Shown here: positions 39,001 through 45,000 of the stretch, in pieces
Position numbering within the stretch: the stretch's first letter is position 1
How the letters are laid out: every line of letters starts with the position of its first letter
From: Paracoccaceae bacterium
GTDB lineage: Bacteria > Pseudomonadota > Alphaproteobacteria > Rhodobacterales > Rhodobacteraceae
Length of the DNA stretch: 64,000 nucleotides
NCBI GenBank assembly: GCA_039960995.1
Contig: JBDVKF010000020.1
Span: forward strand, 8,948-72,947
Direction of reading: 5' to 3'
Position numbers: made by a program

Positions 39001-42000
39001 AAACTTCGGCTGGAATATGACCAGACTTACGAACCGCAACCTCTAGGGCAATATCTGCGTACAAACGATGGTATCTTTCTGCAACATTTCGAATGTGACG
39101 AAAGCAATTGGCGCGCGGCTGTTGAGGCTTATTGGTTCATTGGGACGCTGGAACGTTTGCCGGAATGTCTTAATTACCTTGCTGAAAAACTGGACAAACC
39201 GGCGCCGGGTATCCTTCCTCATGAAAACAGCACGGTGCGCGACGAAGAAATCACCGAAGACGATATCGCGATTTTCAGGGCCAATAACGCAGTTGAGTTT
39301 GAAATCTATGACGCTGTGGCGGCCCGATTGGACGCATCATTGTTGCAACATTCGAGCGATTAGTTCACGGGCGGAAAATCGAGGTGCCCAGCCGGGATAG
39401 TCGGACTGGAACGCGCGTGTATCTGATATCCACCACATGTGATCGCCGTAGCGAGATTGAGGGTTGTGGTGGCGGGGCACTTCGCGGCCCAAAATCTCTT
39501 GGGCGAGATCAAGCGCTTCGGTCACGGAAACAGAACTGTTGCGACCGCCGCCCATATTGTAGACGCCTTTGGGTACTCCACCTTGCACGACACGTGCAAA
39601 GGCCTCTGCAAGATCATCGGCATGCAAATTGTCACGGACCTGTTTACCGCCATTTCCAATGATCTCATAGCTGTCTCCGGCCACAACGGATTTGCACAAA
39701 TAGGACAAGAAACCGTGCGCCTTTGCCCCGCTGTGATCTTCGCCGGTCAAGCATCCCGCGCGAAAGACTGCGGTCTGCAGATCAAACCGATCGGCATATT
39801 CCTGTACCATCAGATCGGCGGCTACTTTTGAAACACCAAAAAGACTATGCTGAGTCTGATCGATGGACATGGTTTCATCAATACCGTGCTTGAAAAACGG
39901 GTGATCTGTTGGCGGCTCTAATCGGGTATTGTGCGCGATCAAAGGCAACAGGTTCGGGCGGGCACCGTAGACCTTGTTGGTGCTGGTAAATAAAAACGAG
40001 GCGTTGGGTGCATGTGCGCGGCAGGCTTCCAGCAAGTTCAGAGTTGCGGTTGCATTGATGCCAAAATCGGTCTTGGGATCCGTGGCTGCCCAATCATGCG
40101 AAGGTTGTGCTGCGGTATGTACGACGACCCCCAACGCATTTCCAAACCGCCCAAACAGTGCATCGATGGCATTTTCATCGCGAATGTCGAGCTCGTAGTG
40201 CACATAGCCCGGGCAGGTGGCCTCAAGCATTGGGCGCTTTTCTGCATTACTTGCCGCGGCGCCAAACAGCTTTGAACGCTGATCGTTGTCGACACCAATA
40301 ACTTCAAAACCAAGTTCAGTAAATTTGCGCACCGCGGCAGTGCCGACAAGACCTAGTGAACCGGTGACAAGTGCCAAGCTTTTTTCGGTCAAGAGGCCTG
40401 TCTCCGTTTCGGGAACCGGTTTGCGGGACGTCATTCAACCCCTTAACAAAACGTATCGAGATCGCCTATACTGAACAAGTTGATTATTGCTTTTTGGATA
40501 ATTGGATTTTTGTGATACGGTCTTTGAATGACACAATTGAGAATTTTTATATCATCTATTGTGATGGTTTTGGTGTTCGCCGTTGGGGCTATCGCGCAAG
40601 TGTCAGGCCAGACAGACAACAAACGCGTGGCCTTTGTTGTCGGCAACTCCGCTTATCAAGGTACTCTTCCGGAACTGAAAAATCCTGTCAATGATGCTCA
40701 GGATATGGCGGTAAAGCTGGAGGAGTTGGGCTTTGAGGTGATTGTTGCCACCGATCTAAGCCTGCGCGCTTTTCGCTCGTCCCTCCTTGAATTTGCTACG
40801 GCCATGGAAGGAGCAAACACATCATTGTTCTTTTATGCAGGCCATGGTGTTCAGGTAAATGACGAAAACCATTTGATCCCGATTGATGCGCAAATTTCGC
40901 GCGTGCGCAGCTTGGCTGACGAAACGATCACTGTGAATAGGATCGTGGGATTGATGAACCAGTTCACGGATACCTCGATTGTGCTTCTTGACGCGTGTCG
41001 GGACAATCCGCTGACCAGCGATATTCCGATTGGTGAACAGCAGGATGGCTTTGGACGCGGTCTCGCACGTGTCAGAGCGGATGGGGGCTCTTATATCGCA
41101 TTTGCGACAGCACCAGGCAACGTTGCCTACGATGGGGAAGGGCGCAACAGCCCGTTCACAACCGCCTTGCTGCAGCATATTTCCGCGCCAAACTTAGATA
41201 TTCGTCTGATGATGGCCGATGTGCGCCGTGATGTGTTTGAAGCGACTCAACAGCGGCAACTACCTTGGGAAAATAACTCGTTGATTGGCCGGTTCTTCTT
41301 TGATGAGAACAGTACGTTGCAAAGGCTCGACAGCGCCAATCGTAACGAAGTAGAGGCTTGGCAAGCGATAGCGAACTCAAACCGGCGCGAAGATTACACC
41401 GCATTTATGCGCGACTTTCCGGACGGCAATTTCGCATCGGTCGCCGAATTGAAGGTAGCTGCACTTGGGCAGGCTGAAGAACGGGCCAGCGAGGCGCAAT
41501 CAGGTTTCGTTCTCGCACGGGCGACCAACACAGAAGATAGGTGGGAAGATTTCCTGGAAAAACACCCTCAGGGTTTGCTGTCTGACATTGCGCGTGAGGA
41601 ATTGAGGGAGTTACGCGACCAGATTGAACGTGATCGTATGTCGCTTGAAGAAATGCACTGGCGCTCGATTGCGCAGTCGCGCGCGCCATCCGACTTCAGG
41701 ACGTATCTTTCAATTTATAGCAACGGTCCGTTTTCCGATCTAGCACGCGATCGTTTAGAGGCGGCGGAGCGTGCAGAAGAGATTGTGGCGACATTTACCG
41801 GAGGGGATGCTCCCGAGAATGTCAGCGACGTGCGTCTCGAACAAGAAATCAAAGCCAAAATTGACCAGATTCCAGTTCAGTTCATTCAATATGGGCTGAA
41901 TGCCCTCGGTCATCAGGTCACCGATATCTCGGGGGTTCTAGACCCGCCAACCCGGCGTGCGGTTCGCAATTACCAGGCAACAATTGAAGCCACCCAGACG

Positions 42001-45000
42001 GGGCGGCTTACACCCACGCAAACAGTTGATCTGTTGCTTTCGGCGGCGGCTTTGGGCGACAGTTATGCGTTGACGGCTACAGGGATCATGCTGACCTCAG
42101 GACAGGGCCTTCGAAAAAACGAAGAGATGGCGCGCCAATGGCTAGACCGGGCGGCTGATCTGGGCAATGGCCTTGCTATGGCTAATCTGGGAATTCTGTA
42201 TCGCGACGGTCTTGGCGGCGATCGAAATCTGGCAAAAGCCCGCAGCCTGCTGACAGTCGCTGTGACGCTGGGTGTTCAAGACGCTGAACCCGTGCTGCGC
42301 AGTCTTGGCAAATGAAGGCATCACTTCTGGCAATTCTGATGGCGTTTTTGGCCAATTTTGCACAGGCTCAGTTGCTGCTGCCTAAGCCTGAGTTGCGGGT
42401 TGAGAAAGACTGTGAAAACTGCCCGGAAATGGTGATTTTGCCAAACGGATTATACATGAGCCGAGCGCCTATAATGGTGTCAGAATTTCGCGCTTTTGTT
42501 GAGGAGACTGGATACCGAAACACGGGGTGGGGCTGCAAATGGAATTTCAGCGGTTTTGAGCAGGGTCCGCGCCACCCAGTTACCTGTGTTACATTCGATG
42601 GGGCGGAGCTCTATGCCCGTTGGCTTAGCGACAAAACCGGCCAAACGTACCGCATTCCTACCGGCGAAGAACTTACATATGCCGTGACCGCTGCAACGAC
42701 CACGAATTACTGGTGGGGCCAACAAATCGGACGCGACCGGGCGACTTGCCTTGGTTGTGGGCGCGCGCTGGATGCAGAGGGGACCACACCGGTGGACACC
42801 TTTGAGGCTAATCCGTTCAATCTGCTTGATGCACTGGGTAATGTCTGGATATGGACGACAGATTGTAACAACGCCGATTGCACAGAGCGTTTCTTGCTGA
42901 GTGGTGGCTGGTCAAGTCCGCCTTCCGATTTGCGCATGAGCAAGAGGGTTTTTAACGGTGTGACCGTTCCGTTCAATACTTATGGCATCCGAGTGGTGCG
43001 GGAGTTCGAATGATATATTTTGGATCATGGACCAGTTCAGTCTTGTCTGTTCTTGCAGCTATAACTGCCCTTTTCATGGGCTCTCCTAGCTTGGCGCAGG
43101 TCGCGCCCGGAACGGTTTTTTCGGACTGCGAGGATTGTCCCGAATTAACGATGCTGGACAACGGCACGGCCATCGGGACCACTCTTGTTACGCGGGCGCA
43201 ATTTGGCGCTTTCGCCGAGGAAGTAGGAATACCGGGCGCAGAAAGCTGCTACATCCGTATCAACAAGCGTTGGGATAACGCCAAAGGTAAAGGCTGGATG
43301 GACCCCGGTTTTGAGCAGGGCGACGATCATCCTGCGGTTTGTATGAATTGGCTGGAGGCCACTGCCTTTGCCGACTGGCTCAGTGAGAAGACTGGGCAGT
43401 TTTATCGCCTGCCAACGTATGAAGAATCTGTGGCCGTAACGGCCGCAGGGGCAACGACAGCTTTTTGGTGGGGCGAAGATTTTTCTGAAATTTGTGAGCG
43501 TGCCAATGCGGCCGACGTTAGTTTCAAAGCGGCATTTCCCGAAGATGAACGCAAGATCCTGACCTGCAATGACGGTTATGCGTACACTTCGCCCGTAACC
43601 GCATTTCCTCCGAATTCTCTCGGGATTTACGACGCCGTGGGCAATGTCTGGCAGTGGACCAATACATGTCTGAATGGCGACTGTTCGAATGCGCTTTTTC
43701 GCGGTGCTTCATGGGTGGTGCCAGCCAAAAACCACTTTCGCAACGATGGTCAGTGGTCGGATCGTATCATTCTGCGAAATTCAGCTGTTGGGTTTCGAGT
43801 CTTGCGCGACCCACAATGACGCTTCGGCTGCTGGAGCGTCGATGCGACGCCTGAAAAATAGCACTAAAAAGGTTTTGGTCACGGGTGGGGCTGGATTCAT
43901 CGGAGTGCATCTGGTGGATAGGCTCTTGGCACTTGGCCATGACGTACTTTGCGTGGACAACCTTTACACAGGTTCAAAGCGCAACATTGCCCATTTACAC
44001 GCCAACCCAAATTTTGAATTCATGCGCCATGATGTGACGCAACCTCTTTATGTGGAAGTTGACGAAATCTACAATCTCGCGTGTCCAGCGTCGCCGGTAC
44101 ATTACCAGAATGATCCGGTGCAGACGGTCAAAACCTGTGTCCTTGGCGCGATCAATATGTTGGGTCTGGCAAAGCGTCTGGATTGTCGGATTTTTCAGGC
44201 CTCAACCTCAGAAGTCTACGGTGATCCCCAGATGCCTGTGCAGCCAGAGACATACTGGGGCCACGTCAATCCAATCGGGCAACGTTCGTGCTATGATGAA
44301 GGCAAGCGCTGTGCAGAGACATTGTTCTTCGACTACCACCGGCAACATCAGCTCGACATCAAAGTCGCACGGATATTCAACACGTATGGGCCAAAGATGC
44401 ATCAAGCAGATGGTCGTGTGGTTTCAAACTTCATCGTGCGCGCACTGGAGGGGGCTCCTCTTTCGATCTACGGCGATGGCAGCTACTCCCGGTCGTTCTG
44501 TTATGTTGATGACCTTCTGGACGGAATCTTGGCTCTTATGGGAACCGACGCCGAAATCACTGGTCCGGTCAATTTGGGCAACGACCAAGAAGTAACGATG
44601 CTGGAACTGGCGCAGCTTGTGCTGCGTTTGACGGGGTCTAAGTCATCGATCGAATTTGCAGACTCGGTCCCAGATGATCCCAAGCAGCGCCGCCCCGACC
44701 TGATGCTAGCATGCGAAATGCTAGACTGGTCTGCATCAATTGAGCTGGAAGACGGTATTTCCCGCACCATCGATGATTTCCGCCACAGGCTGGGCTGACA
44801 AAAACTTGATATAACCTGGCTCATTCAATCGATTTCGAACATCCAGCGAGCTGACGGGAGCGCGATCAATCAGATCAATCGTTCTTTCGTCACGCTATAC
44901 CTGTGGGCAGCCAATTGACTTGGCATCGACATGGTGCAAGTCCGTCTGACATCTACCAGCACCCATTGGATGCGCGACATCAGAGGTGGACTTGTCGGTC

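Follow-up and report, generated by a model that had tools for sequence, protein, structure and literature searches.

A translationally coupled caspase-like protease and two PvdO-like proteins travel with a giant glycosyltransferase in Alphaproteobacteria

A 64,000-nt stretch of Paracoccaceae DNA (contig JBDVKF010000020.1; the whole stretch is called the window here) carries three overlapping genes for a caspase-like protease and two proteins of the formylglycine-generating enzyme (FGE) fold, which we call FGE-A and FGE-B. The two FGE-fold proteins are not formylglycine-generating enzymes; by sequence and predicted fold they lie nearest to PvdO and to pFGE/SUMF2. The unit is also larger than three genes: the triad is accompanied by a giant glycosyltransferase (GT) and often by sugar-nucleotide SDRs and a small lipoprotein-like gene. 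Such synteny suggests a cell-envelope glycan module, so far uncharacterised, in preference to sulfatase activation or a defence system. The first-pass annotation, made from the sequence of the window alone, had described the three-gene operon and missed the larger unit.

The open reading frames (ORFs) and both 4-nt ATGA junctions lie exactly where that annotation had placed them (Table 1). A GGGAG Shine-Dalgarno-like element stands before the FGE-B start with a 5-nt spacer, and the overlap between the caspase and FGE-A genes is also seen in the gene calls of five related loci (L092, L097, L100, L101 and L102). It is confirmed that the three genes form a genuine, tightly coupled operon. Each product begins with a hydrophobic core followed by an AxA-Q-type site, and this pattern, which bears out the three signal peptides noted at first reading, is kept across the orthologs of each family except in evidently shortened gene calls. 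All three proteins are predicted from it to be exported.

Related loci were gathered with FGE-A as starting point (by a metagenome scan and by looking up contigs) and also with the caspase. The order caspase, FGE-A, FGE-B is found in 18 of the 18 loci that have sequence upstream of FGE-A (the window, L001, L002, L081, L083-L087, L089, L092, L093/94, L095-L097 and L100-L102). The caspase gene lies directly upstream of FGE-A in every such locus, and tight or overlapping junctions are kept as well. FGE-B adjoins FGE-A everywhere but in L082, where the FGE-A ortholog is followed by low-GC, Bacteroidota-like genes, one of which ends in a type IX secretion system sorting domain (positions 1-2933 of that locus). 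Since the GC content drops from ~0.55 to ~0.40 right after FGE-A and the genes beyond it are Bacteroidota-like, L082 is probably a chimeric contig and not a real exception. The FGE-A ortholog family comprises ~57 clusters at 45% identity or more, after which the score falls from 243 to 112 bits. Its hosts belong to the Rhodobacterales (Paracoccaceae metagenome-assembled genomes (MAGs), uncultured Ruegeria, Actibacterium and Amaricoccus) and to the Hyphomicrobiales (Jiella, Alsobacter, a Rhizobiaceae MAG and Chthonobacter).

As a control we used 80 alphaproteobacterial caspase loci from GTDB genomes, taken from among the matches listed and mostly paralogs. The FGE pair was present in two true orthologs only, and the triad in none of the 78 others: 74 have no FGE-like ORF in the fetched flanks, three are caspase-FGE fusions, and one (L030) has an unlinked FGE-like ORF ~3 kb from the caspase. 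Synteny so conserved puts the arrangement far beyond chance; a lack of conserved synteny, which the first-pass annotation had named as evidence that would count against a link between the genes, was not what the genome-neighbourhood survey returned.

The best evidence at hand for physical joint action of the caspase and FGE-fold modules comes from gene fusions in relatives. L019 and L057 encode secreted caspase-FGE fusions made up of a signal peptide, the caspase domain, a helical linker and an FGE domain starting DCxxCPEM. In both, a helical linker of the same type leads to the PvdO-like FGE domain, which replaces the peptidoglycan (PG)-binding/Sel1 tail of the cassette caspase. L055 resembles them in layout, its FGE domain being cut by the contig end, and P0281 is an additional fusion. 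By a Rosetta-stone argument, these single chains suggest direct cooperation between the two modules. Metacaspase and orthocaspase fusions to FGE-sulfatase domains were surveyed by Asplund-Samuelsson et al. 2012 (PMC3501461); they associate the same two domain types as the cassette does, and L019, L055 and L057 are the secreted alphaproteobacterial cases here. The cassette, in contrast, has separate coupled genes, two FGE-fold paralogs, PG_binding_1 and Sel1 modules on the caspase and a tie to a GT locus, none of which is found in that survey. We found no paper that describes a periplasmic caspase/FGE-A/FGE-B triad or its GT linkage, in agreement with the earlier statement that such a cassette is not functionally characterised. 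The domain association is thus known, while the split, duplicated, exported and GT-tied form appears to be new.

All 12 loci with ample flanking DNA have a GT homolog next to the triad, and none of the control's 78 caspase loci that lack the triad has one (Fisher's exact p = 3.7e-15). Its place varies: it is upstream of the triad in Rhodobacterales and Jiella, and downstream in Alsobacter and the Rhizobiaceae MAG. The protein encoded in the window matches Glycos_transf_2 (1.3e-27) and Glyco_transf_41 (6.2e-17) in Pfam and shows, by a heuristic scan, no signal peptide or transmembrane segment. Shorter versions in L093/94 and L097 (and, judged by size, L002) lack the GT41 lobe and the C-terminal tail. 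In that tail, 218 residues in the window, the motifs PKTGGTS and RDPLERAIS resemble the PAPS-binding sites of sulfotransferases; its Sulfotransfer_2 match is sub-threshold (E = 0.023) and it has no PDB match, and a sulfotransferase identity is a hint.

The small putative lipoprotein gene directly upstream of the GT has tblastn homologs at the same position in L001, L092 and L102, and the position is held by unannotated genes of 133-149 aa in L093/94, L096, L100 and L101 and of 69 aa in L095. Its product matches no Pfam or NCBIfam family; a likeness to the caspase helical repeats, suspected by eye, was not significant (E = 0.15). Two SDR genes border the triad in the window. The divergently transcribed one has GalE/RmlB-like NCBIfam matches below cut-off, and its homologs lie beside the triad at varying positions in L081, L083, L087, L088, L095, L096 and L100. 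The other, downstream, gives NCBIfam matches of the ArnA and UDP-xylose synthase (UXS) type, likewise below cut-off; its homologs flank the triad, also at varying positions, in L001, L081, L088, L095, L096, L097 and L102. Its likely true start lies 23 nt past the FGE-B stop, so that the gene probably stands fourth in the same transcript. Downstream of its stop codon, the nearest plus-strand terminator-like hairpin is at 45077-45102, such sites being not above chance in number; both promoter and terminator scans gave site counts no higher than in shuffled controls.

Two loci are informative about the module as a whole. In L097 the triad is embedded in a polysaccharide cluster with Wzz, Poly_export, GT4, Bac_transf and Wzy_C genes. 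In L100 (10779-16896) FGE-B is inverted and belongs to a transcript of the small gene, the GT and FGE-B that converges on caspase and FGE-A. It shows a link between the GT and the FGE-fold genes that does not depend on the caspase operon; the genes behave as one module whatever their operon layout. The Amaricoccus locus L096 holds, between the giant GT and the SDR and caspase genes, a gene (6959-7741) for a 260-aa RTX-type protein with Peptidase_M10_C and HemolysinCabind matches, a possible candidate for a secreted substrate in that locus only.

We then compared FGE-A and FGE-B with each other and with proteins of known structure. At 32% identity (BLASTP 1e-38) they look like old paralogs. The motifs quoted in the first-pass annotation are present, DCENCPEM and DCEDCPEL at the N-terminus and GNVWIWT and GNVWQWT in the core, and there is no Cys where the FGE pair sits: the corresponding stretch reads SGGWSSPPSDLRMSKR in one protein and is a 16-letter stretch in the other. 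In true FGEs the catalytic, copper-binding cysteines lie in a C-terminal loop (Cys336 and Cys341 in human FGE). The last cysteine is C190 in FGE-A and C225 in FGE-B, and since the 43-44 residues that follow are Cys-free, a catalytic pair at the FGE position is impossible under any alignment. The active-site cysteines that a proper alignment might have revealed are therefore not there, and the C-terminal region is likewise Cys-less across both ortholog families. HMMER alignments to catalytic FGEs (human, T. curvata and S. coelicolor) stop at the core GNxWEWT motif, beyond which only the Cys-less PvdO and SUMF2/pFGE align. The Cys-free region and the truncated alignments together rule out a catalytic FGE, and the automatic name 'formylglycine-generating enzyme required for sulfatase activity' is wrong for proteins of this type.

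PvdO was the top PDB match of FGE-A (3e-19 with the single sequence, 2.9e-30 with a profile), and FGE-B matched PvdO at 7e-24 and SUMF2 at 1.8e-10, the latter alignment running through the C-terminal region. The AF2 model of FGE-A (pLDDT 76.8, pTM 0.75) gave Foldseek TM-scores of 0.71 to PvdO, 0.61 to pFGE, ~0.55 to catalytic FGEs and 0.48 to PorK. In NCBIfam the best match of both proteins is the PvdO equivalog NF051459, at 94.9 and 111.1 bits; with the cut-off at 500, FGE-A and FGE-B are PvdO-like and not PvdO. PvdO itself (Pseudomonas pyoverdine maturation; PDB 5HHA) shares with them Sec export to the periplasm, as predicted for both, an FGE fold without the catalytic Cys pair, an N-terminal DCxDCPEM motif and several cysteines, and is thought to need a partner enzyme. 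It differs in going with PvdP and siderophore genes, whereas the proteins here are duplicated and coupled to a caspase and a GT; no pvdP, pvdMN or pyoverdine NRPS gene was found in the window or in any related locus. The second-best structural match, pFGE/SUMF2 (PDB 1Y4J), is likewise an FGE fold without catalytic cysteines and, PvdO apart, the only FGE-type structure to align through the C-terminal region of both proteins. It is, however, a eukaryotic endoplasmic reticulum protein that modulates a true FGE, and the cassette has no catalytic FGE. FGE-fold heterodimers have a precedent here, as pFGE and FGE are paralogs that pair. A further comparison comes from PorK/GldK, a type IX secretion protein, which is a periplasmic non-catalytic FGE fold that serves as structural subunit of an envelope machine; sequence and fold matches to it are weak, and it is a distant Bacteroidota lipoprotein that forms large rings with PorN.

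The cysteines that remain are well kept. FGE-A has eight family-invariant ones, including an N-terminal CxxC, C146-x2-C149 and C185-x4-C190, and FGE-B has eight conserved ones at parallel positions, with the C-x4-C directly after the core. The spacing of this last motif equals that of the FGE copper-binding pair. In periplasmic proteins these cysteines would most simply be read as structural disulfides. Several PvdO-like relatives found with FGE-A (P0180) or FGE-B (P0274, P0234, P0240, P0241 and P0285) are fused to other domains, namely cytochrome c (PF13442), TonB C-terminal (PF03544, PF13103) and PEGA domains; with partners so varied, the clade seems to provide a periplasmic module of many uses, at times in a redox setting.

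The protease looks catalytically competent. Peptidase_C14 covers residues 32-256 (E = 2.9e-39), and the dyad that the first reading had recognised, His106 in FYAGHG and Cys157 in LLDACR, does not vary among 12 aligned orthologs (40-84% identity). The C-terminal modules are likewise supported by Pfam (PG_binding_1 at residues 450-496, E = 8e-6; two Sel1 stretches, E = 9e-12), which suggests tethering of the protease at the cell wall. Among solved structures the nearest is the paracaspase MALT1 (3.7e-12), in which the motifs YAGHG and LLDxCR are in register (LLDMCR in MALT1). D56 and D155 are invariant in the 12 orthologs and align with MALT1 positions that we take to be the S1 aspartates D365 and D462; the third S1 pocket residue falls outside the alignment, and the p10-like region is poorly modelled. 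MALT1 is an Arg-specific paracaspase, and an acidic S1 pocket goes with Arg/Lys specificity in non-metazoan C14 members. With MALT1 as nearest structure and both aspartates at the presumed S1 positions, the caspase would cleave after Arg or Lys. A 100% identical protein from a Paracoccaceae MAG is annotated 'caspase family protein'. A plasmid database gave no orthologs but only paralogs of 30-33% identity in unrelated contexts.

Altogether, we tentatively favour, with a little less than even confidence, a PG-tethered periplasmic protease that works with the PvdO-like paralogs as recognition or gating subunits on a product of the linked pathway. The triad would form the periplasmic part of an envelope module conserved in Alphaproteobacteria. 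This module would consist of the small lipoprotein-like protein, the giant GT2(-GT41), one or two sugar-nucleotide SDRs, the caspase and the two PvdO-like proteins. After Sec export the protease would be held at the cell wall by its PG_binding_1 and Sel1 tail and, with its intact His/Cys dyad and a presumably acidic S1 pocket, would cut after Arg or Lys. FGE-A and FGE-B, rich in disulfides, would bind it, probably as a heterodimer, and as substrate-recognition or gating subunits steer its cuts towards a protein or glycoconjugate that the linked glycosyltransferase pathway makes. By analogy, a recognition or regulatory role is plausible from the secreted caspase-FGE fusions and from Tsi3, pFGE and PorK as precedents for FGE folds that only bind. 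The first-pass annotation had called the two proteins probably non-catalytic recognition or regulatory subunits. They are indeed not FGEs, and the fusions make recognition plausible, but the step from loss of the Cys pair to loss of catalysis is unsafe, because PvdO lacks the pair and is nevertheless required for an oxidation step.

Several points weigh against this proposal. The protease-FGE complex is read from genes and fusions, and the AF2 model of the full-length caspase (pTM 0.35) is too poor for domain-level or fold-search conclusions. The signal peptides were judged by hydrophobicity and the AxA heuristic alone, and many of the loci come from MAGs or metagenomes. The core module contains no flippase or exporter, which leaves the route from a cytoplasmic GT to periplasmic proteins unexplained. 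Finally, the eight conserved cysteines in each FGE-fold protein, with their CxxC and C-x4-C, could equally mark a redox or metal site, and the cytochrome c domains fused to some FGE-B relatives hint at redox roles in the clade.

Two alternatives are unlikely but deserve to be weighed. In the first, FGE-A and FGE-B would be periplasmic inhibitors that silence the caspase in its producer until release or activation, much as an immunity protein does. Translational coupling would supply the fixed stoichiometry that such a cassette needs, the catalytic residues of FGE-A and FGE-B are lost, and co-transcribed protease inhibitors exist in the staphostatins. A precedent is Tsi3, a group of Cys-less FGE-fold immunity proteins of type VI secretion systems (T6SS) that act by binding and neutralising a partner protein (2021, bioRxiv 10.1101/2021.05.21.445229). 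They often occur as tandem diverged paralogs, and their genes form part of vgrG-tse3 modules, with tse3 commonly on the other strand; membership was defined there by a profile match of E < 1e-50 (bioRxiv 10.1101/2021.05.21.445229). FGE-A and FGE-B, too, are Cys-less at the FGE site, stand in tandem and come from a genome with a T6SS. The two paralogs, however, are strictly kept as distinct orthologous families rather than as the variable arrays of Tsi3, and their invariant neighbours are a Sec-exported caspase and a GT. A permanently attached FGE domain, as in the fusions, suits an adaptor better than an inhibitor, and the PG-binding tail suggests that the protease works in the periplasm of its own producer. 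Inhibition would also leave the GT linkage unexplained.

In the second alternative, which we regard as improbable to a similar degree, FGE-A and FGE-B would be PvdO-like redox or metal enzymes that use the CxxC or C-x4-C to modify a peptide or glycan of the linked pathway, with the protease acting on the same substrate in a separate step. PvdO is named a dehydrogenase in NCBIfam, and most characterised FGE-fold families are enzymes; conservation of all eight cysteines, the copper-pair spacing of C-x4-C and the cytochrome c fusions point the same way. Yet PvdO, though required for the oxidation step, is cofactor-free, inactive alone in vitro and always accompanied by PvdP (PMC6206403), and the equivalog scores of 95 and 111 bits leave FGE-A and FGE-B far from it. 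Structural disulfides account most simply for periplasmic cysteines, and the caspase fusions argue for joint rather than sequential action.

A bolder form of the favoured proposal, which we consider quite a long shot, makes the module a hitherto unrecognised machine that processes or sorts proteins in the periplasm in connection with envelope glycan synthesis. The PG-held caspase-fold enzyme would cleave, or transpeptidate, a product of the giant GT2-GT41, either a glycosylated envelope protein or a glycoconjugate, and the FGE-fold heterodimer would supply substrate recognition. Related enzymes, GPI-transamidase and legumain, do transpeptidate. If true, the module would parallel the exosortase/PEP-CTERM-EPS or sortase systems in function, with folds that are entirely different.

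It is very unlikely that the cassette belongs to the T6SS, with FGE-A and FGE-B as Tsi3-family immunity proteins and the caspase as effector or accessory factor. The window does contain a complete T6SS cluster, a PAAR gene follows the cassette at 1.4 kb downstream, T6SS genes are also near the module in L001, L096 and L102, and Tsi3 proteins too are Cys-less FGE-like proteins in tandem. But no vgrG-tse3 pair flanks the FGE genes, and the predicted Sec-type signal peptide of the caspase is atypical for a T6SS effector. Adjacency to T6SS genes is confined to members of the Rhodobacterales and not seen in Hyphomicrobiales loci, no T6SS gene occurs in the flanks of L002, L092, L093/94, L095, L097, L100 and L101, and the other cassette loci contain no homolog of either the PAAR gene or the 1259-aa ORF beyond it. 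It is the GT, and no T6SS gene, that is strictly conserved beside the triad; the recurrent co-residence with T6SS genes in some loci is unexplained.

Bona fide sulfatase maturation, or a cytoplasmic conflict system of the vWA-MoxR or STAND type with an FGS sensor and a caspase effector, is hardly credible: PF03781 matches, source annotations as FGE and reported caspase-FGS associations speak for it, but the catalytic region has no Cys, no Sulfatase family member was found among the scanned window ORFs or the annotated neighbours of L092-L097 and L100-L102, and no core NTPase (MoxR with vWA, or STAND) is adjacent in any locus. The FGS domain has been described as a ligand- or protein-recognition module beside caspases in NTP-dependent conflict systems (Kaur et al. 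2020, PMC7159879) and in STAND sensors (PMC13581612), so that the first-pass statement that caspase and FGE-fold proteins are associated holds in the literature (PMC3501461, PMC7159879). Its conflict-system framing does not fit. Those systems are cytoplasmic, centred on vWA-MoxR or STAND NTPases and often diversified by diversity-generating retroelements (DGRs), and the cassette shares none of these features: it has no NTPase, vWA or DGR partner, and all its products are predicted to be exported. A DGR-diversified FGS domain was ruled out, as there are no direct repeats, DGR-type or other, in window positions 33000-46500 and the C-terminal regions are conserved rather than hypervariable; so was a known defence system, PADLOC giving only a weak generic caspase match (26 bits).

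Bacterial caspase homologs are abundant and almost none has a known substrate, partner or role, whereas this cassette gives one a defined, conserved partner set. It moves one caspase/FGE association from the frame of programmed death and immunity to that of cell-envelope biogenesis, and adds a case to PvdO, Tsi3, PorK and pFGE as Cys-less FGE folds that serve for binding or as enzymes other than FGEs. It can be tested in cultured hosts, namely Actibacterium sp. 188UL27-1, Jiella marina and Chthonobacter rhizosphaerae.

Table 1. Positions of the module genes, their sub-features and other genes in the window.
Feature	Position	Strand	Size, match or remark
Small putative lipoprotein	34103..34534	+	143 aa; lipobox LAGC; directly upstream of giant GT
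Giant cytoplasmic glycosyltransferase	34555..39363	+	1602 aa; Pfam
Giant GT, GT2 domain	34612-35079
Giant GT, central region			~870 aa without family assignment
Giant GT, GT41-like GT-B lobe	38077-38625
Giant GT, C-terminal tail	38707-39360		candidate sulfotransferase-like motifs
SDR-type sugar-nucleotide epimerase/dehydratase	39337..40434	-	Pfam Epimerase 3.6e-38; divergent from caspase gene
Caspase-like (C14) protease, predicted secreted	40528..42315	+	595 aa; ORF and Pfam
Caspase, predicted signal peptide	~40528-40596
Caspase, C14 domain	40621-41295
Caspase, His106	40843-40845
Caspase, Cys157	40996-40998
Caspase, helical repeat region
Caspase, PG_binding_1	41875-42015		C-terminal part
Caspase, Sel1 repeats	from 42064		C-terminal part
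ATGA stop/start overlap, caspase/FGE-A	42312..42315	+	sequence
FGE-A, PvdO-like FGE-fold protein, predicted secreted	42312..43013	+	233 aa; Pfam PF03781 1.3e-28
ATGA stop/start overlap, FGE-A/FGE-B	43010..43013	+	sequence
FGE-B, second PvdO-like FGE-fold protein, predicted secreted	43010..43819	+	269 aa; Pfam PF03781 1.1e-31
UXS/ArnA-C-like SDR (UDP-glucuronate decarboxylase-type)	43842..44798	+	likely start ATG 43842; Pfam Epimerase 1.1e-47, GDP_Man_Dehyd 6e-46
Terminator-like hairpin	45077-45102	+	first past the UXS-like stop
T6SS cluster	65-25019	-
T6SS, PP2C	65-781
T6SS, TssM-size ORF	1434-5045
T6SS, VgrG	9909-12041
T6SS, ClpV-size ORF	14311-17013
T6SS, TssC/VipB	21885-23375
T6SS, TssA/ImpA	23958-25019
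518-aa protein	27158-28714		sub-threshold DUF4384 match
Plasmid-type maintenance block	28755-33917
Rep3 initiator	28755-29945	-
ParA	30439-31821
ParB	31825-32910
Putative antitoxin of GNAT toxin-antitoxin pair	32870-33373
GNAT toxin of the pair	33363-33917
PAAR gene	45207-45524
148-aa ORF	45808-46254	-
1259-aa ORF	46270-50049	-	no Pfam family
Peptidase_C14 gene	50325-51806	-	493 aa; E ~1e-37
Peptidase_C14 gene	53556-55100	+	514 aa; E ~1e-37
OmpH-like gene	55070-55774
YceI/OmpA gene	56446-57516

Other genes of the window are listed in the lower part of Table 1. Judged by its plasmid-type maintenance block, the window probably belongs to a plasmid or chromid in a Paracoccaceae MAG. The 1259-aa ORF and the 148-aa ORF that follows it both face the PAAR gene, a layout that makes them a candidate T6SS effector-immunity pair; like the larger, the smaller ORF has no homolog in other cassette loci. 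Two more Peptidase_C14 genes, whose protease domains share 31-39% identity with that of the cassette caspase, have no FGE-fold neighbours and adjoin OmpH-like and YceI/OmpA genes. A homolog of the 518-aa protein (29% identity) is encoded in L001 (12148-13641), ~2 kb downstream of FGE-B, so that it resides together with the module in at least two Paracoccaceae genomes.

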